Part shown: one piece after another, positions 2,721-48,786 of the stretch
Numbering within the stretch: the first letter of the stretch is position 1
Layout: the number at the start of each line of letters is the position of its first letter
Assembly (NCBI GenBank): GCA_001817065.1
Contig: MHHQ01000025.1
Span: forward strand, 55,528 to 119,527
Origin: Candidatus Andersenbacteria bacterium RIFCSPHIGHO2_02_FULL_46_16
GTDB taxonomy: Bacteria; Patescibacteriota; Andersenbacteria; UBA10190
Direction: 5' to 3'
DNA length: 64,000 nt
Position numbers and translations under genes: made by a program
Notes under the pieces: generated by a model
The model's database searches: none
What the model was told of the DNA's origin: nothing
The model's input: the letters and a program-made list of their open reading frames with translations, nothing else

Positions 2721-3812
2721 TTGACTATGACATTTGCCGTCGTTGAATATTCCAGTAAATCGGGCGATATTTGGCAGCACACCAAGGAGCGGCCCAATTA
2801 CCTCTGTGATCCATCTCTCGAAATGGATCCGACCAGTTTTGGTTGCTATGTTTCTGCTATGTTGGGTGAACATATTCCTCTTACCAAAATTATTAATACT
2901 GCCAGTTTTGTAAATCGTCTCTATCGCCAAATAAACGGTCACTGGCCAAATCAGTATTCATTGGACTATTTTGGCAAATTTGACCGTTTGCTGGTGATTC
3001 ATGAAGCTGCCAACAGTGGTACAATTACCTCCTTTATTCGCCGACTTAAGTCCCGATACCCGCACTTGAAAATTCTTGGCGTTCCCACCCAGCCCTATGG
3101 CCTCCTGCAGATGCAATGGCAGCATGATCACCAAATTTTGACTAACCTGCAAGAGTTTAGTCAGGCCTGTGATGCCTTCATCACCATTGCCAAAAGTACT
3201 ACACAGTCTTGGCAAAACATTACCCATCGCCCTGTTTATTACCTGCCCCAGCCCTATCCCGTCGAATTTGCTATAAAATATTGGCGGTCACAAGCTGAAA
3301 AAAAACCAATTATTTTTGTTTCTGGCATAACTGATCGGCCTAAAATCATCCTGGGTCATCAAGCCGCGATCGCCCTGCAAAATCAATTTCCTGATCATGT
3401 TATTCATGTGACTGCCACGCCCAACACACCTCTGGACCTATCAGTCTTAGCCGGTGCAAATTATCAAGTGCAGCCATTTCTGCCGTGGCACGACCATCTG
3501 CGCTATTTGTCTTCAGTTAAGCTAGTTATTAATACCGACTTCACGCAAACCCGCGGCCGTGTCCAAATGGATTGTGCGGCAATCGGCACCCCCTCTGTTG
3601 GTGCTGATTCAGACGCTCAAAGCGACCTTTTTCCCCAGCAAGCAGCCAGCCTCCAGAGTTCTGTCGCAGACATCACCACTGCCGCAGGTCACCTGTTAGC
3701 CAACGACCACAAATATCAAGAGACAGTAAATTTTGCCCAGGCAAAACTTCCCTTCTATAACTACGATCAAAGTGCTCAGCGTCTCAATCACCTATATTCA
3801 TTAATCAATTAA
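2721..3812 (+). CDS. Hypothetical protein, GT-B-like C-terminal half (possible glycosyltransferase)
   Basis: 363-aa ORF, soluble, operonic with flanking glycosyltransferases. The C-terminal segment IIFVSGITDRPKIILGH...VKLVINTDFTQTRGRVQMDCAAIGTPSVG resembles the nucleotide-sugar-binding half of GT-B enzymes. No definitive motif. Confidence 0.35.
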   Translation: MTMTFAVVEYSSKSGDIWQHTKERPNYLCDPSLEMDPTSFGCYVSAMLGEHIPLTKIINTASFVNRLYRQINGHWPNQYSLDYFGKFDRLLVIHEAANSGTITSFIRRLKSRYPHLKILGVPTQPYGLLQMQWQHDHQILTNLQEFSQACDAFITIAKSTTQSWQNITHRPVYYLPQPYPVEFAIKYWRSQAEKKPIIFVSGITDRPKIILGHQAAIALQNQFPDHVIHVTATPNTPLDLSVLAGANYQVQPFLPWHDHLRYLSSVKLVINTDFTQTRGRVQMDCAAIGTPSVGADSDAQSDLFPQQAASLQSSVADITTAAGHLLANDHKYQETVNFAQAKLPFYNYDQSAQRLNHLYSLIN

Positions 3813-5002: not shown

Positions 5003-5764
5003 ATGACCATCCCATCCCCTGCCCCGGATCCTATTGCACACAAAAATCGCCCGTTTGATGCTGGTTCGGTTTGGGTGGTTATTCCCACTTACAATGAAAA
5101 ACTAAATATTGTTCGTCTGATTGCCGAAATATTCTCGCTTCCTTTGCCTCATCTAAGTCTATTAGTCGTCGATGATAACTCACCAGACGGCACTGGTGCC
5201 TTAGTAACCCAACTCCAAAGCCAATACCCTAAACTTTTTCTTCTGTCGCGCCCCAAAAAAAATGGTTTAGGACGGGCTTATGTTGATGGATTTGATTATG
5301 CCATTAAACAGGGCGCGAATACTATCGTACAAATGGACGCTGATTTCTCACATAATCCAGCTGACATTCCGCGTCTTCTTCAGGCACTAACTGATCAAGA
5401 CGTCGTTATCGGTTCACGATATGCGCACGGCATTAGCGTTATTAACTGGCCGCTGCATCGTTTACTGCTTAGTACTAGTGCCAATATCTATGCTGGTTTT
5501 GTCACCGGCATGCCATTCAAAGACTGTACCGGTGGTTTTCGTGCTTGGCGTGCATCTACTTTAACCGCAATCAATTTTTCCGATATCCAAGTTGACGGTT
5601 ATGGTTTTCAGATAATTATGCTCTACCGCACTTGGCGACAGCCCAGTCGCATTATTGAGGTACCTATCATCTTCACTGAACGTCGTGAAGGTCAATCCAA
5701 AATGACCAATAGTATAATTGCTGAGGCAATGATCTTGGTCTGGAAACTGCGCTTATTTGGCTAA
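5003..5764 (+). CDS. GT2 polyprenyl-phosphate glycosyltransferase (dolichol-phosphate mannosyltransferase DPM1/GtrB-like)
   Basis: VWVVIPTYNEKLNI...LLVVDDNSPDGTGALV...KNGLGRAYVDGFDYA...IVQMDADFSHNP is the canonical DPM1-type GT-A block order, with DxD = DAD. Confidence 0.8.
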   Translation: MTIPSPAPDPIAHKNRPFDAGSVWVVIPTYNEKLNIVRLIAEIFSLPLPHLSLLVVDDNSPDGTGALVTQLQSQYPKLFLLSRPKKNGLGRAYVDGFDYAIKQGANTIVQMDADFSHNPADIPRLLQALTDQDVVIGSRYAHGISVINWPLHRLLLSTSANIYAGFVTGMPFKDCTGGFRAWRASTLTAINFSDIQVDGYGFQIIMLYRTWRQPSRIIEVPIIFTERREGQSKMTNSIIAEAMILVWKLRLFG

Positions 5765-5785: not shown

Positions 5786-8020
5786 GTGAAGTCTTTTCTC
5801 GTCAAATTAGCCGCCGCTTATTATCCGCTGCTGTTTGTATTACTTGTTATCTCCGCCTCCTTTTATCCTCTGCTAATTGGCCGCTTTTTTGCTATCGGTG
5901 ATATCCGTGATGTCTATATTCCGATTGAGCAATTCTTTCATACGCAGGTTGTGCAAGGCCATCTGCCGGCGTGGCTGGCTGATGCGGCCTGGGGATTCCC
6001 GGTTATCGCGTCAGCCCAAATCGGCTTTTTTTATCCGCCCTTGCTGGCACTACGGCAACTGCCCCTGTCTGTCTATTTGCCTATTTTGCTGTTGGCTCAT
6101 TTTCTGTGGCTAGGACTAGGAACTTTTTTGTTTTACCGGCGTTTTTGCGCACCCTCATCCGCCGCTGTTGGTGCACTCTCGTTTTCCTTAGGGGGTTATA
6201 TTGTCTTACACCTTACTCACCTCAATATCATATTTTCTCTAGCCTGGTTACCTTGGCAATTCTTATTAATTTACCGCCTCGCCTCGCGTCCCCTAGCACA
6301 TCGTACGATCCTTTATCTGGGGCTATTACTAGCCATCCCCTTTCTGGTGGGACAAATACAAATACCCCTCCTTATGTTCATCATTTCTTCTGTCTGGTTC
6401 TTATACCTTCGCCATCACTTTGCTTTTTCCTGGACTTGCTCTTTTGTTGTCTTAGTCGTAGTGGCTGCTTTGGTCGTATTGATGAGTTCTGTACAGCTGC
6501 TGCCCACCTATGAACTAATGACACAGTCTACTCGCGATATTTCTTCTGCTTCCTTTGATATCATGCGTGCCAACCAGCACAGTTTCCCTGTCTATCATTT
6601 GCCCACTCTCCTTTTCCCCCGTTTCTTTGCCAACGATGACATGTATTGGGGGCGTCGTCTGCAAATCGAGTATGGCGTTTATATAGGCACATTTCCTCTC
6701 ATCGCTGCCTTACTTTTTCTCTTTCGTCCTCGCTCTAAAGACCAGCCATCATTGCCAACTAATTTATATGATGTCACGCCTTTCTTTCTTATCTTGTTGA
6801 TCACCTCATTTTTGTTGGCCCTGGGTTCCCTCTCACCATTTCGCCTGCTTAAAATTGAACCGTCGCTATGGGTTTTTTCCGCTCCGGCACGCTGGCTGCT
6901 TTTTACTAGTTTTTCTTTTTCTTTTTTTGCCGCTACGGGAGCTGATCGCTATTTTAAGCAGCCAGCCTCTTACCGACAATTATTTCGTAGATTATTCCTT
7001 ATCCTTCTGCCCTTTTTGATCGTTTGCCAATTGATCTTATGGTTTCTCGTCAACTATTCATCAGTCTGGCTCTACCCTTATTTGTCATCAGCCCATCAAC
7101 AGAAAATATCATCACTAATCTCCAGTGCCAGTCAGTCCAGCGTAAGTTTAGCATCGCTCTACACGTGGCTGCCTCTCCTGATTATTTTTGTCATCTCTTG
7201 TCGCTTTGTTTTACGCCACCCCGTACGCTGGGTATTGTCATTAACCGCGCTGGAATTGTCTCTGCTCTTTATTACCACCACGCCGACTTTGCCTTGGGCA
7301 GACATTATTTCCCCTCCCGCTACTCTATCTAGCTTGCCTTTATCCGTGCGGAGCGGACAAGCCCGGCTATATTCGATCCGGGAAGGTGGCGACACTGGTG
7401 CTTACTTTACTAACCCAAACTCGCGGGCCAATGCCACATTACGTCAGCAGCAGCGCCAACTATTTGTTCCCCTTATCCACACACAGTTTAACTTACCGGG
7501 TATTGAATGGCCTGCCTCCCTTGATCTAGGTGCCCACTCCGCTATTTTCTCTAAGCTTCGTACTGATGATAGCTACGAGCTGACGAATACCTCTCTCGCC
7601 AAACAATTAAATATCGGCGCTGTCCTCAAATCATCCGACCAATCCATCTCAGTTAGCACTACCGATTATGCACCGCGTTTAGAACTTATCTCGTCCAATA
7701 GTATCAGCACGCCTCTGGCTTATCCCAAAAGTACCAACGGATCATTTTCGATTGACTTGGATGTACCGCAGCTGTCCACTTTAGTGGTGCGTGACTCATA
7801 TTATCCAGGCTGGCGTGCTACAATTGATGCCAGACCAACGACTATTTCAGTCTATCAAGACATCTTCCGCCAAATCTCAGTTCCGGCCGGTCGCCACCAA
7901 GTAACTTTTTCTTATTATCCCGCTTACCTATATGTTGGTCTCATCATTACTTCCCTAACTCTTAGCCTTATCATCATTTGGTTATTTTTCACCCTCTTTT
8001 ATCATCGTTTTTACCAGTAA
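5786..8020 (+). CDS. YfhO-family large polytopic membrane glycosyltransferase-like protein
   Basis: 744 aa with more than 12 TM helices, then an extracytoplasmic C-terminal domain and a final TM. The C-terminus DSYYPGWRATIDARPTTISVYQDIFRQISVPAGRHQVTFSYYPAYLYVGLIITSL matches the conserved YfhO terminal motif (YsPGWkaxVdGkxvxi..adgaFraVxvpaGkHtVef.YrP). It lies directly after a DPM1-like GT2, like the CsbB/YfhO pairing. Confidence 0.6.
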   Translation: MKSFLVKLAAAYYPLLFVLLVISASFYPLLIGRFFAIGDIRDVYIPIEQFFHTQVVQGHLPAWLADAAWGFPVIASAQIGFFYPPLLALRQLPLSVYLPILLLAHFLWLGLGTFLFYRRFCAPSSAAVGALSFSLGGYIVLHLTHLNIIFSLAWLPWQFLLIYRLASRPLAHRTILYLGLLLAIPFLVGQIQIPLLMFIISSVWFLYLRHHFAFSWTCSFVVLVVVAALVVLMSSVQLLPTYELMTQSTRDISSASFDIMRANQHSFPVYHLPTLLFPRFFANDDMYWGRRLQIEYGVYIGTFPLIAALLFLFRPRSKDQPSLPTNLYDVTPFFLILLITSFLLALGSLSPFRLLKIEPSLWVFSAPARWLLFTSFSFSFFAATGADRYFKQPASYRQLFRRLFLILLPFLIVCQLILWFLVNYSSVWLYPYLSSAHQQKISSLISSASQSSVSLASLYTWLPLLIIFVISCRFVLRHPVRWVLSLTALELSLLFITTTPTLPWADIISPPATLSSLPLSVRSGQARLYSIREGGDTGAYFTNPNSRANATLRQQQRQLFVPLIHTQFNLPGIEWPASLDLGAHSAIFSKLRTDDSYELTNTSLAKQLNIGAVLKSSDQSISVSTTDYAPRLELISSNSISTPLAYPKSTNGSFSIDLDVPQLSTLVVRDSYYPGWRATIDARPTTISVYQDIFRQISVPAGRHQVTFSYYPAYLYVGLIITSLTLSLIIIWLFFTLFYHRFYQ

Positions 8021-36550: not shown

Positions 36551-36722
36551 TATGGAAGTCACATTATGAAATGCCACAAATATAGTGACGGGCCCTGTCG
36601 GCGCTGCACCCCCACCCGACGGCTTCGGCCTGCCAGGCGGGCAGCCTGCAGGCGCTCGGTGGGGGTCCCCCGCGCCGCCACCCGTTTATTTAAGAGTGGC
36701 ATTTCATAATGTGACATCTATA
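36551..36722 (+). mobile_element. 172-bp GC-rich foldback/MITE-like repeat, copy 1
   Basis: 27-bp terminal inverted repeats TATGGAAGTCACATTATGAAATGCCAC ... GTGGCATTTCATAATGTGACATCTATA. The core is about 75% GC with nested palindromes. Identical to copies 2 and 4. Confidence 0.85.
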
Positions 36723-36782
36723 TTTGATTGCCGGACATCTTCTGCGCTTGCGCCCCTTCAAGCCCTGTCGCATTATTTTTAT

Positions 36783-37685
36783 ATGAAAGTACTCATTACT
36801 GGCGGAACTGGATTGCTCGGTTACCACCTGCAGCTGCTCGCACCACCTCAAGCCAATATAATTTCGTGCTATTTGCCCTCCGAGGAACCACTGCCCTATC
36901 CTTTACCTTTCCCCGCTCAGCCGCTCGATATCACTGATTTCTCCAGAGTAACCAATCTCTTCACCAAATTTTCACCGGACATTGTTATTCATACAGCAGC
37001 ACAAGGCAGCATCGATTGGTGTGAAGATCACAAACCATTAGCTCGTTCTGTAAATATCGATGCGACCTTTCACCTGATTGATCTTTGCCGCCGCCATCAT
37101 ACCCATTTCATTTTTCTTTCCACTAACGCTGTTTATGATGGTCATTCTTCCTATGCCAAGGAAACCGACGTTCCTCATCCGGTAAATTTTTACGGTGCAT
37201 CAAAACTAGCGGTCGAGCAGGCACTAGCCTCTGATTCGGTTTCCTCCACAATTATTCGCCCTAACTTGATGTATGGTTGGCCATATCCAGGCGGACGCGA
37301 CAATCAAGTCACACGTGTCATAAATTCCTTGCGTCAATCCTCCCCAATTAAAATTCTTTTCGATACTTGGTTTTCGCCCGTCTCAGCTAATTTCATGTCA
37401 CGAGTCATCTGGTACTGTGCCCTTGACCGAATATCAGGTCTCTTCAATATTGGCGGCAGTCAGCGTATGACGTTATTTGATCTATCCAAATTAACCGCGC
37501 AGATTTTCCAGCTTGATCCATCCTTATTAATCCCTGTCTCCATCAAAGATGTCCCAGCGGCCCCACGCGCTATTGATACCTCGTTTTCTACCGCTAAAAT
37601 GACCTCCGAACTATTCTTCTCTCCGCAGCCAGTCGCCGAAGACTTATTAGCCATGAAGACAATTCCCGTCCAGTCACCGGCATGA
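36783..37685 (+). CDS. dTDP-4-dehydrorhamnose reductase-like (RmlD family SDR)
   Basis: MKVLITGGTGLLGYHL (glycine-rich loop), HTAAQGSIDWCE, NFYGASKLAVEQ (YxxxK). The size and domain order are typical of RmlD. The track ORF 36585 begins inside the repeat, so the start was moved to ATG 36783. Confidence 0.7.
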   Translation: MKVLITGGTGLLGYHLQLLAPPQANIISCYLPSEEPLPYPLPFPAQPLDITDFSRVTNLFTKFSPDIVIHTAAQGSIDWCEDHKPLARSVNIDATFHLIDLCRRHHTHFIFLSTNAVYDGHSSYAKETDVPHPVNFYGASKLAVEQALASDSVSSTIIRPNLMYGWPYPGGRDNQVTRVINSLRQSSPIKILFDTWFSPVSANFMSRVIWYCALDRISGLFNIGGSQRMTLFDLSKLTAQIFQLDPSLLIPVSIKDVPAAPRAIDTSFSTAKMTSELFFSPQPVAEDLLAMKTIPVQSPA

Positions 37686-38824
37686 CGCGCGTTCACATTT
37701 TAGACCTGCCTCCCTCCCACCATTTTTTGCCGGTGCCGTCTGATTGGTACCCGCTTTATATCAACCAGCGATATTTTCACGATCTCGGCATTACTTTTCG
37801 TTTCTTTTCTGCACCCGACCCCGGCTTAAACAACTGTGATGTTGTTTTTTTATCATCACGCTACTTTGCTTTACAAACAAAAAGTACTACCGAACGCGCG
37901 CATCACTTGTCCTACATTGCCTCTCTAAAAACCAGCACCAATAAGATATTTTGGTTTGATTTTCGTGACAGTACTGGCAATACCCAATTTGAAGTTCTTC
38001 CCTATGTTGATCTTTATCTTAAAAAACAATTGCTGCGTAACTTATCTCTCTACACCAGCGCCTTTTACGGTAATCGCATTTATACCGACTTTATTCATCG
38101 TACCCAAGGAGTATCGGATGACTACACTGAATCCTGCGTCCCTTTGTTGCCTCAGTTTCATTCCAAACTAACCATATCCTGGAATCCAGGCTTACTCGAT
38201 TTTCGCGGCGGCTTAAACCGGCACTTGGTAAAGCAGCAAATCATTGATCACTGGGAAACCCGATTTCCAAATGACCATCACATCACCTGGCAAAATCCTC
38301 TCGCTCCTCGTCCATACCATATGCTTGCTCGCTTTAATATTAATTACCAACGTCGCACCGTGTCGTGGCAGCGCCGCCATGCGCTGCAGCTTCTTCATCA
38401 ATTAAACGATCCATTCATCATTTCTCGCTCTGAACTTACTTTGTCCGAAGAGCTATCTTATCGCCGTCAAGTCAAAATCGTGCTAAGCCTGTTTGGTTGG
38501 GGAGAGATTTGCTCACGTGATTTCCAGGCCTGGATCGCCGGCGCCGCATTGATTGCGCCCGACACATCTCACCTGGTCACCTATCCGGTAACACATATTC
38601 CCGGTCAAACCTATCTACCCATCAAATGGGACCTGTCTGATCTTTCCTCAGCTTACCAGCGCCTCATTAACGATTCCTCCCTTCGCCTCAACCTTGCCCA
38701 ATCCGGCCAAGCACGTTACCGCTTCGTCTGGTCCAAGAAAGGACGCCAATCATTCGTTAGCCATATTGCTGATTTATTGAGCAACTCACTCTCGCTCGCT
38801 TTATCTATGGAAGTCACATTATGA
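37682..38824 (+). CDS. Hypothetical protein, GT-B-like C-terminus. Its last 6 codons and stop are supplied by repeat copy 2.
   Basis: 380 aa. FGWGEICSRDFQAWIAGAALIAPD resembles a degenerate GT4 E-x7-E box. The 3' end ...LALSMEVTL-TGA lies inside the repeat (38806-38824). Confidence 0.45.
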   Translation: MTRVHILDLPPSHHFLPVPSDWYPLYINQRYFHDLGITFRFFSAPDPGLNNCDVVFLSSRYFALQTKSTTERAHHLSYIASLKTSTNKIFWFDFRDSTGNTQFEVLPYVDLYLKKQLLRNLSLYTSAFYGNRIYTDFIHRTQGVSDDYTESCVPLLPQFHSKLTISWNPGLLDFRGGLNRHLVKQQIIDHWETRFPNDHHITWQNPLAPRPYHMLARFNINYQRRTVSWQRRHALQLLHQLNDPFIISRSELTLSEELSYRRQVKIVLSLFGWGEICSRDFQAWIAGAALIAPDTSHLVTYPVTHIPGQTYLPIKWDLSDLSSAYQRLINDSSLRLNLAQSGQARYRFVWSKKGRQSFVSHIADLLSNSLSLALSMEVTL

Positions 38825-38977
38825 AATGCCACAAATATAGTGACGGGCCCTGTCGGCGCTGCACCCCCACCCGACGGCTTCGGCCTGCCAGGCGGGCAGC
38901 CTGCAGGCGCTCGGTGGGGGTCCCCCGCGCCGCCACCCGTTTATTTAAGAGTGGCATTTCATAATGTGACATCTATA
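38806..38977 (+). mobile_element. 172-bp foldback/MITE-like repeat, copy 2
   Basis: 100% identical to copy 1 over 172 nt. It overlaps the 3' end of the upstream CDS. Confidence 0.85.
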
Positions 38978-43946: not shown

Positions 43947-45209
43947 ATGAAAGCAATTCATTGGCCAGCCGTCGAGGACTTTTTACAAGCACAATTTAAA
44001 TTTGATGTCGCGCATTATTTAAGAAGTGGTTGGTGGTCAGTGTTCAGCAATATAGTGCAGGCTGCCAGCGGTTTAACGCTCGCCATTCTTTTTGCCCATT
44101 TAGCATCCAAAGAAGTATTTGGTGAATTCCAATTGGTCATCTCAATCATTTCCATGACGGCCGTCATCTCATTGAAAGGATTAGATACTGTCATTGTTCG
44201 TGACGCAGCTCAAGGCAAAGAAGGTATCTTGCGTCGGGCGTCAAGACTACGTTGGCAGTGGAGTTGGCTCGCCTTACCTGTCCTGAGCGGACTAGGCTGG
44301 TATTATTGGCAACTTGGCCAAGCCCGAATCGGTTTCGCTCTTGTTTTATCCGGTCTACTCGCCCCCTGGAATTACTTGGCACCAACCTGGGAAGATTTCG
44401 TTAAAGGTCGTCAGCTGTGGAAACAATACTCGTTGTTTACATCACTAAGATCCGGTGCTGTTCTCTGCTTTGTTGGTTTATCGATTTGGCTTAGCCAGGG
44501 AAATCTGCTCGTTGTTTTTTCGATGTATTTGCTCATCAACCTAATCTTGAACCAAGGCTTAATCTGGTTTTACAAACGAAGCGTAAAGAACGATAACGTC
44601 AACGCCGACTGGAAGTCTTATGGAATGTTCTTGTCGAAATTAAGTTGGCTTAAGACCATTGTGGCTAATTTAGATAAGGTACTAGTAGGAATAATTATTT
44701 CGCCCTCCGCTTTGGCGGTTTATTCAATCGCCCTGATTATCCCGAATTATTTGCAATTAGCAGTTAAGGGGTTTTTTCAAACCACGAGTCCCCGCTTAAG
44801 CGGACGTAAACAAATCTACTGGCACGAATTAGCGATTACGGGGTTTTTTGGTCTGGTTTTTGCCTTAATTACCGTCGTCGCAGTAAAGCTTTTGCTAATC
44901 AGATTCTTTGGCGAATCATATCAACCAGCCCTTCCGCTGGCTTATATCGCAGCCACGGCCATGATTTTCCATCCCATTGCCCTTTATCTGGTCAATTTTG
45001 CCAATATGAATAACCGGAAAGACGCGCTCGTTAAATGTAATTTAATTTGTCCGATTGTCCGATTAACATTGCTCTTATGGTTAGGCAGCCAATGGCATGA
45101 AACAGGCTTCGCGCTAGTCTATGCCATTATGGGTTTAGTTTGGGTTATTGTCCCCATTTGGTTGTTAAAAATCAACTGGCGACAATTAACGGTGGGAGAG
45201 CTTAACTGA
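43947..45209 (+). CDS. Wzx-type oligosaccharide flippase (polysaccharide biosynthesis protein, MOP superfamily)
   Basis: 420 aa with 12 predicted TM helices. The N-terminus (VFSNIVQAASGLTLAILFAHLASKEVFGEFQLVISIISMTAV) has the Polysacc_synt-type arrangement. Confidence 0.6.
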   Translation: MKAIHWPAVEDFLQAQFKFDVAHYLRSGWWSVFSNIVQAASGLTLAILFAHLASKEVFGEFQLVISIISMTAVISLKGLDTVIVRDAAQGKEGILRRASRLRWQWSWLALPVLSGLGWYYWQLGQARIGFALVLSGLLAPWNYLAPTWEDFVKGRQLWKQYSLFTSLRSGAVLCFVGLSIWLSQGNLLVVFSMYLLINLILNQGLIWFYKRSVKNDNVNADWKSYGMFLSKLSWLKTIVANLDKVLVGIIISPSALAVYSIALIIPNYLQLAVKGFFQTTSPRLSGRKQIYWHELAITGFFGLVFALITVVAVKLLLIRFFGESYQPALPLAYIAATAMIFHPIALYLVNFANMNNRKDALVKCNLICPIVRLTLLLWLGSQWHETGFALVYAIMGLVWVIVPIWLLKINWRQLTVGELN

Positions 45210-45214
45210 ATACA

Positions 45215-46201
45215 TCAATGATCTATTTTTACATTGCCAAGAGTACCGCGCAGACGCCCGCGGGAGTTTGGTGCTCGCAGCCAGTCCGCTAGCGTTTGAA
45301 AATATTTTGACAAACGTCCTCGACCCGGGAAATCAGGCAGTATTCGTTCTACCGAACGAATAGCTTTAATTGAATTTGACAGCCGGTCGATCTCCTTGTT
45401 GGACAGCCAACCATAAGAATTATTTGTTAGCTCCAAGGCATAGTCAAGATACCCATAGTGTAGGCAAATCAGCACCGCATAATATATTTTCAGTTTTTGC
45501 TGATCGGGTGACCAGTTATTTAATAGCTGGAAGTAGCTATTCATATTTCTAAGATATAAGGCATCCCCAGCTAATAATTGTCCTTTTCGGTTCCCATAGT
45601 TTAAACCAATCTGGCGCTTGAAGTATTGTGGCCGTATATCAAAAAGATAGAAACCAAGAGACTGCAAATACTGGTCGACCTGGGAAAATAGCGGCTGTTT
45701 CTGGTAAAGTGGCGCGAACTCGATCTCAACTTCCACGCCAAACCCGTATTTTTGCAAAAATTTATTCCCACCCTGCAGAATTAGCAGTTCAGAACCTTGC
45801 GTATCTAGTTGCAAAAAGTCACCACTCGTTACCAAACCTTCCTGATTAAGATTATCCAGTGTGTCGACTTTTACTTCCGATTGACCTGTTAATTGAAAGT
45901 AGTCGGCAACTGCAAACCGGTCTAAAAAATCCTGGTTTGGTTTATAAATTGAAGAGACAGCTGGATTTTTAGTTTGGTAAAAGGTAACCGAGTCGCGGTG
46001 GTCCAACAAACCTATATTAATATAATGTTGATTATCCAACTGTGGTAAATTGAGATAAGAATTAGGATCTGGTTCAAAACCAATTACGTTTAACAGATCA
46101 GCGTACGGCCGCCAATGTTCTGGCAATCCACCGCTCGCGCCAATCAGTAAAAATGTCAGCGGATGACTGCCAACTTCCTTTGTTAATACGGTCGGTAGCA
46201 T
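45215..46201 (-). CDS. FkbM-family methyltransferase-like
   Basis: FLLIGASGGLPEHW...VIGFEPDPNSY and LQLDTQGSELLILQGG match the FkbM motifs. Confidence 0.55.
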   Translation of the reverse strand: MLPTVLTKEVGSHPLTFLLIGASGGLPEHWRPYADLLNVIGFEPDPNSYLNLPQLDNQHYINIGLLDHRDSVTFYQTKNPAVSSIYKPNQDFLDRFAVADYFQLTGQSEVKVDTLDNLNQEGLVTSGDFLQLDTQGSELLILQGGNKFLQKYGFGVEVEIEFAPLYQKQPLFSQVDQYLQSLGFYLFDIRPQYFKRQIGLNYGNRKGQLLAGDALYLRNMNSYFQLLNNWSPDQQKLKIYYAVLICLHYGYLDYALELTNNSYGWLSNKEIDRLSNSIKAIRSVERILPDFPGRGRLSKYFQTLADWLRAPNSRGRLRGTLGNVKIDH

Positions 46202-47303: not shown

Positions 47304-47469
47304 TATAGATATCACCTTATTAAATGCCACCTTAAAATAAAACGGGTGGCGGCGCGGGGGACCCCCGCCGAGCCCCAGCAGGCTGCCCGCAGGGCCGATG
47401 CGGTCGGGCGGGGGTGCAGCGCCGACAGTCCCCGTCACTATATTTGTGGCATTTCATAAGGTGACTTCC
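47304..47469 (-). mobile_element. Foldback/MITE-like repeat, copy 3 (diverged, about 90% identical, 166 nt)
   Basis: Reverse-complement orientation. It carries compensatory substitutions in both TIR arms and both core stem arms, a 3-nt internal deletion and a diverged outer end. Confidence 0.8.
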
Positions 47470-48613
47470 TTGCATTGATTTTACTGGGTTGACGTTGCTT
47501 TGATACCCTCACTATCCCTGAATCACCCACACCCAACTTATCTAACGCCTCTAACCAAAGTTTCATACCGACCGACATCTGCGCTAAGCTCCAAATATTT
47601 TTAACCTTTCCCCGCTTGCCAGCGCACAGGTTAAATTCCGAATATTCTTCGTCTATTCGTACGGCAATTTCTTCATATCCGCCAAGTAAAGACTTTGCTT
47701 TTAGATCAAGCGACCACAAGAAATCAACCAACGTTTCGGTTAGTGCCATGCCTTGCAGCTCCAGTAAAAAGTCTTGGTAATTATGATGGTCATTACGGTG
47801 TTGTGTTACTACTGGCGACCCATACGCCACCGCCAATCCAAATTGATCCGCCAAGAACTTACTAATATATGAAGAATAAATGTCATCAAACCTGCCAATA
47901 AACGGGCACAAAAACGCTGTCAACCAAAAACTATTAAGATAAGCCGTATTCTGTGTATCAAGGGGGCAGATCATATTTTTACCTAACACCAGCCGTTCTT
48001 TACGCCGCACTTTATAATCTCCCCGCAATCCTTTTATTCTCTCAATCGCATCCACGTCCGGGTTCTGTTCCCACAATCCTTGGTTCATTGCGATTTTTAC
48101 CTTTTTTTGCTTTCTTCTAACCTTTCTCTCCTTATTTTTCTCACGGTCGAACGGCGAGAAGCCTCTCATGAATATTGGCTCATCATAAAATGGTTCTAAG
48201 GCGTTATACCAAGTAGGGCTACCAGCTTCCACCACTTTTCCGCGATAGACGCCGCTGCTATGTTTGCTTAAAAAATCAGTTTCTTTTAATAGGTTATCGT
48301 CATCCAAAGTGATTAGAACGTCGTCTGATCGCAACCCTTGTTTAATACAAAACAAGTAGGCAAAATTACGCCGGTCAATCGAATTAAAGGGAATATATTT
48401 AGTTATAGCCAACTCCTTGAACTCTTTTAACTGCGCCTTTACATCTAAATACGTCACTCCTGCAAACTGGCTGCAATATTCCTTGACTTCTTCCGGCGTT
48501 TTTAAATCACCCGCAATCACGAACATGTACTCATGTCCGTGCATTTTAAAATCGTTAATATATTCCTCAATAAAAGTCGGCTTATTTATAGTGGTGGTTG
48601 CAACGTAGTACAT
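47438..48613 (-). CDS. Putative GT-A-fold glycosyltransferase (STELLO/DUF288- or RGP-like). Its C-terminal codons and stop are supplied by repeat copy 3.
   Basis: MYYVATTTINKPTF...FVIAGDLKTP...VLITLDDDNLL (DxD). The family assignment is tentative. The ORF ends ...SPYEMPQI-TAG inside the repeat. Its ATG is 1 nt from repeat copy 4. Confidence 0.4.
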   Translation of the reverse strand: MYYVATTTINKPTFIEEYINDFKMHGHEYMFVIAGDLKTPEEVKEYCSQFAGVTYLDVKAQLKEFKELAITKYIPFNSIDRRNFAYLFCIKQGLRSDDVLITLDDDNLLKETDFLSKHSSGVYRGKVVEAGSPTWYNALEPFYDEPIFMRGFSPFDREKNKERKVRRKQKKVKIAMNQGLWEQNPDVDAIERIKGLRGDYKVRRKERLVLGKNMICPLDTQNTAYLNSFWLTAFLCPFIGRFDDIYSSYISKFLADQFGLAVAYGSPVVTQHRNDHHNYQDFLLELQGMALTETLVDFLWSLDLKAKSLLGGYEEIAVRIDEEYSEFNLCAGKRGKVKNIWSLAQMSVGMKLWLEALDKLGVGDSGIVRVSKQRQPSKINARKSPYEMPQI

Positions 48614-48614
48614 A

Positions 48615-48786
48615 TATAGATGTCACATTATGAAATGCCACTCTTAAATAAACGGGTGGCGGCGCGGGGGACCCCCACCGAGCGCCTGCAGGCTGCCCGC
48701 CTGGCAGGCCGAAGCCGTCGGGTGGGGGTGCAGCGCCGACAGGGCCCGTCACTATATTTGTGGCATTTCATAATGTGACTTCCATA
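48615..48786 (-). mobile_element. 172-bp foldback/MITE-like repeat, copy 4
   Basis: The exact reverse complement of copies 1 and 2 over all 172 nt. Confidence 0.85.

Follow-up and report, generated by a model that had tools for sequence, protein, structure and literature searches.

What is the 172-nt GC-rich foldback unit that recurs four times in this stretch of Candidatus Andersenbacteria DNA, and what could have put it there? The original prediction described an undescribed MITE-like element with four copies in the window, by which we mean the whole 64,000-nt stretch analyzed, and all four were recovered where they had been placed. Copy 1, used here as the consensus, occupies positions 36551-36722 of the plus strand, a span that takes in the TA target duplications discussed below (36551-36552 and 36721-36722). 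It is flanked by an M14-peptidase-like gene and by an RmlD-type epimerase gene, the true start of the latter being 36783. Copy 2 (38806-38977, plus strand) and copy 4 (48615-48786, minus strand) are identical to it, with no difference among the three over 172 nt in either a repeat search or a four-way alignment. Copy 3 (about 47304-47472, minus strand) has 87% identity and a remodelled apex, and appears to be older. Its divergence had been correctly noted, while the accompanying ‘3-nt deletion’ turned out to be a 4-nt deletion combined with a 1-nt insertion, for a net loss of 3 nt.

The unit consists of AT-rich arms around a GC-rich centre. In copy 1 the left terminal inverted repeat (TIR) spans 36553-36577 on the plus strand (TGGAAGTCACATTATGAAATGCCAC) and the right TIR spans 36696-36720 on the minus strand (TAGATGTCACATTATGAAATGCCAC in the minus-strand reading). 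Inverted ends of 27 nt are present as predicted, with a complementarity of 25/27 rather than 24/27; the mismatches fall at positions 4 and 7, and 20 perfect pairs are contiguous. Chance would give 0.01 occurrences of a 20-mer of the TIR, GTCACATTATGAAATGCCAC, in the window, where it is found 8 times. The core, which forms an inner compound hairpin (36587-36686, plus strand), is indeed GC-rich, at 80% over element positions 37-136 rather than the ‘about 75%’ first given, compared with 29% in the arms and 42-47% in the window, and the T-run TTTATTT follows it at 36685-36691. The element is non-coding, the sole open reading frame through the 172 nt being a spurious GTG extension of the downstream epimerase. 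This GTG inside copy 1 opens a frame into the epimerase gene (window 36585-37685), and because of it the enzyme is annotated with 366 aa in some assemblies and with 300 aa, from the true start at 36783, in others.

The host is an uncultured CPR/Patescibacteria bacterium from Rifle groundwater. The RGP-family protein encoded between copies 4 and 3 is found on contig MHHU01000044.1 (186,245 bp) of Ca. Andersenbacteria RIFCSPLOWO2_02_FULL_46_11, whose genome is listed with 1.17 Mb, 45.3% GC and 46 contigs in an entry of the supplement to Anantharaman et al. (PMC5079060). The whole 64-kb window is a single glycan-biosynthesis island, amounting to at least 5% of the 1.17-Mb genome, with many GT1, GT2, GT4 and GT9 glycosyltransferases, MurJ, FkbM-type methyltransferases, Capsule_synth and DegT, together with NeuB and a CMP-sugar transferase (for a sialic-acid-like sugar). 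Its gene order is kept in relatives of just 51% identity. The predicted absence of a transposase holds for the window, and all four copies sit in short spacers of this island. As a separate observation, the GC skew of the window ranges from -0.10 to -0.35 in all 2-kb bins except 44001-46000 (+0.01), and the AT skew is mostly negative. The GC skew is not a transcription-strand effect, because it persists at gene strand switches (14.5-23.3 kb and 40.8-53 kb). The same strong skew is seen at locus L035, introduced below; for a bacterial chromosome, its size is unusual.

To count copies beyond the window, JGI metagenome contigs were scanned for exact matches to GTCACNTTATGAAATGCCAC, and at least 49 loci were returned. 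The element is present in about 40 of the 49; each of the others is an isolated chance match within coding sequence of an unrelated organism. After de-redundancy of the flanks, 23 distinct left and 19 distinct right flanks of unrelated sequence were left, giving at least 23 insertion sites; this figure is a lower bound because the window's own JGI contig is absent from the list. With the exception of copy 3 and of the copy at L032, which has a 26-nt apical deletion, the copies are at least 98.8% identical and depart from the consensus at no more than 2 nt. So many sites with so little divergence support the recent mobilization that had been proposed from the three identical copies. All 15 full-length copies with readable surroundings, as well as copy 3, lie between open reading frames or overlap last codons only; under a crude ORF mask, non-coding DNA makes up only a few per cent of the window.

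The same copies recur across assemblies (MHHU, MHHV, MHHT, LCKH01, DNQH01, DATDTV01, ENA and JGI), which bears on whether the repeats could have been produced by assembly or scaffolding. Palindromes do disturb assemblies of this organism. In the UBA genome DNQH01 the hairpin is collapsed to ‘NN’ (L004 9956-9999 and 19637-19681), and in LCKH01 (L071, LCKH01000009.1, around 5300-5410) half-elements run on into unrelated DNA or into sequence that lies 43 nt past the element. L073 (MHHU01000037.1) contains N-runs, and many contigs end inside the element. The half-elements in Ga0075963 and LCKH01 were set aside as mis-joins or deletions at the palindrome centre. Full identical copies are nevertheless present in at least six assemblies that are independent of one another and come from different groups and samples (MHHU, MHHV, ANAN16 ENA scaffolds, JGI Ga0209211, and other IMG projects such as Ga0155205 and Ga0156259), and an artefact has practically no chance of accounting for the repeats themselves. 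This damage to public assemblies, in the form of NN-collapsed hairpins and chimeric joins at a long palindrome, matters to users of metagenome-assembled genomes.

The ends of the copies and their surroundings carry most of the evidence for how the element arrived. Nearly all copies begin and end in TA. The single exception, on single contigs L070 (MHHV01000049.1) and L072, reads ttactaac-TT-TGGAAGTCAC...GTGACATCTA-TT-cttacagg. Because this copy is flanked by TT...TT, the terminal dinucleotide behaves as a 2-bp target-site duplication, leaving an element proper of 168 bp (TGGAAGTCAC...GTGACATCTA) with 25-bp TIRs. The TT...TT pair is a direct repeat that makes two mismatches in the hairpin, and thus fits a duplicated non-canonical target and not conservation of the fold. 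It is this one copy that supports the interpretation of the TA termini as a target duplication, which the original prediction had left to be checked.

Flanking positions provide a second line of evidence. When intergenic TA sites of the window serve as the background, T is absent from position -1 (0/23, p = 4e-5) and A from position +1 (0/19, p = 2e-4); position -3 is A in 17/23 flanks and position +3 is T in 15/19. The target consensus is therefore palindromic around the TA, as A-W-V-TA-B-W-T. A dimeric DDE transpososome yields a symmetric target centred on the duplicated dinucleotide, and the combination of a 2-bp duplication, a strong TA preference and a palindromic target is a hallmark of the IS630/Tc1-mariner superfamily.

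Identical 2-nt flanks are also expected after a crossover by a serine recombinase, which would integrate the element with the same crossover dinucleotide on both sides, and a large serine recombinase gene does exist in the same genome (L023 4443-5939, with Resolvase, Recombinase and Zn_ribbon_recom domains). Such enzymes need extended specific sites, whereas the targets here have in common merely a loose 8-bp palindrome. A TT...TT copy among TA...TA copies would further need a matching change in the donor joint, and long TIRs are typical of DDE transposons. The L023 recombinase itself lies 6 kb from the nearest copy and has unrelated 100-nt inverted repeats of its own, and we regard integration by such an enzyme as having only a slim chance of being correct. 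In the L023 segment 4279-5903 the 498-aa recombinase gene is bracketed by perfect 100-nt inverted repeats, its 3′ end abuts a tRNA gene (5901-5974), and a second inverted pair of 43 nt is found at 3200/4272; it could be an invertible or mobile module.

If the element is mobile, relatives should have sites without it, and this expectation was borne out in part. In L065, where the RGP protein is 70% identical and the gene order is the same, the spacers corresponding to copies 4 and 3 measure 24 and 42 nt, against 266 and 141 nt in the window. In L067-L069 (51% identical) the spacers at copies 4, 3 and 2 measure 109, 70 and 80 nt, and an nhmmer search over all loci found no diverged copies in the relatives' loci. 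These short element-free spacers come from diverged species, whose intergenic DNA is not alignable base by base with that of the window; strain-level polymorphism between filled and empty sites was found in none of the assemblies examined. Two candidates for such sites were rejected. The right flank in L021 that lacks the element carries a 28-nt motif common to two different loci, and the spacers of L004 (DNQH01), which are about 128 nt shorter, reflect the hairpins collapsed to ‘NN’ and are an assembly artefact. The relatives also speak to the possibility that gene cassettes are flanked by direct copies (1 and 2, or 4 and 3). This was rejected, since in the relatives these genes are present and identically ordered although the element is absent, and the copy pairs therefore did not bring the genes in.

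Taken as predicted RNA, the element folds into one long compound hairpin of -99.2 kcal/mol (z = -8.9), and as DNA it folds with -57.4 kcal/mol (z = -9.0); none of 200 shuffles was as stable in either case, and the fold of the opposite strand is nearly as stable. Both as RNA and as DNA, the fold thus greatly exceeds shuffled controls in stability. Copy 3 retains the fold (-87.6 kcal/mol, z = -6.0).

Hairpins of this stability raise the possibility of a REPIN- or PATE-like repeat moved as single-stranded DNA by an HUH (Y1) transposase of the RAYT or IS200/IS605 type. The very stable single-stranded DNA fold speaks for it, as does the fact that GC-rich intergenic palindromes are typical of REP sequences. 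REP/REPIN-RAYT systems resemble our element in being GC-rich palindromic intergenic repeats with long hairpins; REPINs, in contrast, have neither a target duplication nor 25-bp AT-rich TIRs, and to our knowledge no HUH-mobilized element has TIRs of this kind or duplicates its target. Given the observed 2-bp duplication and two-fold symmetric target, membership among REP/REPIN elements was rejected and mobilization by an HUH enzyme is very improbable. No Y1 transposase or RAYT was found in the regions read, which are part of the genome.

Copy 3 was examined for signs that the fold is maintained by selection, as its paired changes had been taken to indicate. Of its aligned positions, 23 depart from the consensus. 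It begins with CAA where the consensus has TAT, so that the left TA is missing, and its apex has been remodelled into another small hairpin. Two compensatory pairs are real: 13:160 in the TIR stem (A-T to C-G) and 64:110 in the core (A-T to G-C). The further changes include at least five one-sided changes that break pairs and one that is wobble-compatible. When the same number of substitutions is placed at random, two or more compensatory pairs arise with p = 0.012-0.038, calculated for this one sequence, and as proof of selection on the fold the paired changes are therefore weak (p about 0.01-0.04). They are suggestive of such selection, coming from one sequence. Arm-to-arm templated correction of a DNA palindrome would give the same paired pattern without selection, and the TIR pair 13:160 is also explicable by the need of both ends to bind the same protein. 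We infer that this GC-rich hairpin is not a selected function but cargo or structure.

These features bear on another explanation, in which the unit is a host regulatory module, either a terminator or an RNA-stabilizing hairpin, that is kept by selection, with gene conversion rather than transposition making the copies identical. Several observations point in this direction. In the forward orientation TTTATTT directly follows the inner GC hairpin, all four window copies are co-oriented with their flanking genes, and copy 3 has the two compensatory pairs just described. Over all sites, however, the orientation is mixed, with 8 copies running with the flanking genes and 4 against them, and with 3 further copies between divergent and 1 between convergent genes, and the terminator function suggested by the original prediction is unsupported by this distribution. 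In the reverse orientation the nearest T-rich stretch lies 6 nt from the hairpin. The element was not among the calls of a consensus terminator scan, and a promoter scan inside it gave weak 9/12 matches only. Unrelated flanks at 23 or more sites, a target duplication, orthologous spacers that do without the element, and the five or more pair-breaking changes in copy 3 likewise argue against a selected module, and we consider this explanation improbable. A polar or stabilizing side effect on neighbour genes is plausible; that the element has such an effect on transcription is a tentative proposal that we would sooner doubt than accept, and it would be no account of the element's spread.

A further candidate, the integron attC site, was also rejected. 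Such sites form one-orientation arrays beside intI and have GTTRRRY core sites, whereas the copies found here lie on many contigs in both orientations and have the ends TGGAAG and TAGATG.

The unit is thus very probably a MITE whose movement depends on a DDE transposase that cuts with a 2-bp stagger. Dispersal, the 2-bp duplication, the palindromic target and the empty orthologous spacers all support the non-autonomous MITE of the IS630/Tc1 kind that had been predicted. That the moving enzyme belongs to IS630/Tc1-mariner is likely, its family being deduced from these features, and IS5-family subgroups with 2-4-bp duplications are, strictly, still conceivable as the mover. A transposase supplied in trans would excise the 168-bp non-coding element and paste it elsewhere. 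At the new site it would make a 2-bp staggered cut at the palindrome A-W-V-TA-B-W-T, and the central dinucleotide, almost always TA, would be duplicated. Amplification would have been very recent and in one species-level lineage of Ca. Andersenbacteria, copy 3 at 87% identity would be an older survivor in the window, and copies would persist only between genes or at extreme gene ends.

A transposase with matching TIRs would complete this scheme, and one was looked for. Neither the window, nor about 0.7 Mb of loci, nor the scans of genome, metagenome and viral-contig collections yielded an autonomous element with matching TIRs. The closest approach to a candidate is an IS630-family insertion sequence of 1,214 bp (L035 9383-10596) on a contig that ends in a copy of the MITE. 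Its HTH_32/HTH_29 and DDE_3 domains are encoded in two frames that meet at an A7 run; it has 28-nt TIRs that begin GTACC[T/G]C[C/A]TTCTTTTAATT..., and is flanked by TA inside a CTAG target. Its GC content is 57-63%, compared with mostly 44-51% in its flanks, and it is single-copy in the loci examined. Because it sits with a TA duplication on a contig that ends in the MITE, the IS630 enzyme family evidently operates in this lineage. As the parent of the MITE it was rejected, since the ends are identical at only 6-13 of 40 positions without gaps, local alignment scores no better than shuffles, and the interior is unrelated. Among its homologues, which lie on short metagenome contigs, every one is an IS630 member with two ORFs and none is named as Andersenbacteria; the consistent two-ORF arrangement of the close homologues suggests programmed frameshifting.

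One further explanation of the missing transposase would make the MITE an orphan in a reduced CPR genome, moved by an enzyme from a phage or from the bacterial host of this presumed episymbiont. The 80%-GC core would then be a fossil from a high-GC donor, and the L035 insertion sequence a second such fossil. We consider this unlikely; if it were true, gene flow into CPR bacteria could be traced by the orphan MITE.

The DNA of the right end also resembles an element from outside bacteria. The 3′ ITR of the Mos1 mariner is TCAGGTGTACAAGTATGAAATGTCGTTT (PMC3419177), and the right end of the MITE agrees with it at 17/27 positions, one base out of register and including TATGAAATG. Shuffles reached this match score in 60 of 100,000 trials, a p-value that is uncorrected because Mos1 was picked after the sequence had been seen. 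No mariner transposase was found, and the resemblance might at most serve as a lead.

Comparison with known bacterial elements allowed us to place the MITE as a new family of a known kind, since it is TA-duplicating like Correia, ERIC/YPAL and RUP elements, yet is by sequence a member of none. Correia elements (CREE/NEMIS) of Neisseria have 100-160 bp, TIRs of about 26 bp, a TA duplication and many near-identical intergenic copies; they form a hairpin when transcribed and may sit at gene ends. Our MITE is like them in size, TIR length, target duplication and near-identical intergenic copies. Beyond a TATAG start no likeness is known between the Correia TIR and that of the MITE, and no cognate transposase is known for Correia elements either. 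In contrast to Correia elements, the MITE has an 80%-GC core in a low-GC host, and that host is a CPR bacterium. ERIC/IRU and YPAL elements of enterobacteria are 127-170-bp imperfect palindromes at TA, found in either orientation in transcribed DNA between genes. ERIC copies are old and have diverged; those of the MITE are almost identical, and blastn with the MITE found no match in E. coli genomes, which carry ERIC and REP. RUP of Streptococcus pneumoniae is small, has a TA duplication, and is presumed to be mobilized in trans by an IS630-family transposase; it has TIRs in common with IS630-Spn1, whereas the only IS630-family element found in the host of the MITE has unrelated TIRs and interior. 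For a bacterial MITE, the CPR host, the 80%-GC core in a 45%-GC genome and the near-complete identity of copies are unusual.

Collection searches agree with the description of the family as previously undescribed. The whole unit had no match in plasmid and phage collections, and blastn with the 172-mer had none in 5,426 complete E. coli genomes. Covariance models of Rfam 15 gave nothing at the gathering threshold, the best at E <= 10 being sX5 (E = 7.8), which is noise. Viral contigs contained neither the element nor a match to its GC-rich core. The 28-nt TIR-like matches in viral contig L012/L060 and in L014, L026, L028, L049 and L050 were rejected as chance matches in coding sequence of unrelated organisms. 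In GTDB species-representative genomes the TIR gave four single chance matches in unrelated taxa and none in Andersenbacteria, although all assemblies of the host species that were read contain the pattern; either the species is missing from the representative set, or its representative lacks or masks the element. No description of a MITE in CPR bacteria turned up in a literature search.

The finding is of interest for several reasons. CPR/Patescibacteria genomes are small and are generally thought to be poor in mobile DNA, and at least 23 near-identical copies in a 1.17 Mb genome indicate recent, efficient transposition in a CPR lineage. Insertions have also already changed gene ends, with three stop codons inside the element and one gene start 1 nt away from it. 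The 380-aa ORF upstream of copy 2 ends at a TGA (38822-38824) inside the element, the RGP-family glycosyltransferase ORF upstream of copy 3 ends at a TAG (47438-47440) inside the element, and the third such ORF is in L022. Copy 4 has its right end 1 nt upstream of the RGP-family start codon (ATG, 48613), which corresponds to the orthologous start in a relative. At its other end, the RGP-family protein has a C-terminus (window 47438-47560) about 23 aa longer than that of the 70%-identical L065 orthologue, with the last 11 residues encoded by copy 3. Four copies lie in a large surface-glycan locus, and identical repeats there could drive deletions or inversions. Beyond the CPR host, the gene-end effects and the assembly damage, the MITE is an ordinary member of a well-understood class.

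Other non-coding features were encountered in the loci read. Further non-coding islands of at least 70% GC in the same genome lie at L015 3490-3920, L041 3123-3288 and 5440-5690, L024 1878-2128, L040 2100-2420, L047 4430-4560 and L020 2740-2900, and none of them matched Rfam. Paralogues of the L015 island, with about 74% identity, adjoin tRNA genes, one each in L041 and L024. A CTGCC-loop-GGCAG-SCTGCAKGCG motif is common to several of these islands and the MITE core, and the islands may be unknown structured RNAs or older repeat families. The 28-nt motif TAACAAATCGGTAACAAACTTTA(C/T)AAAC occurs in two otherwise unrelated intergenic regions (L021 at about 840-870 and L027 at 1848-1875), and several loci are preceded by C/A-rich strings such as AAGCCCAAAC; both may be promoter or leader motifs.
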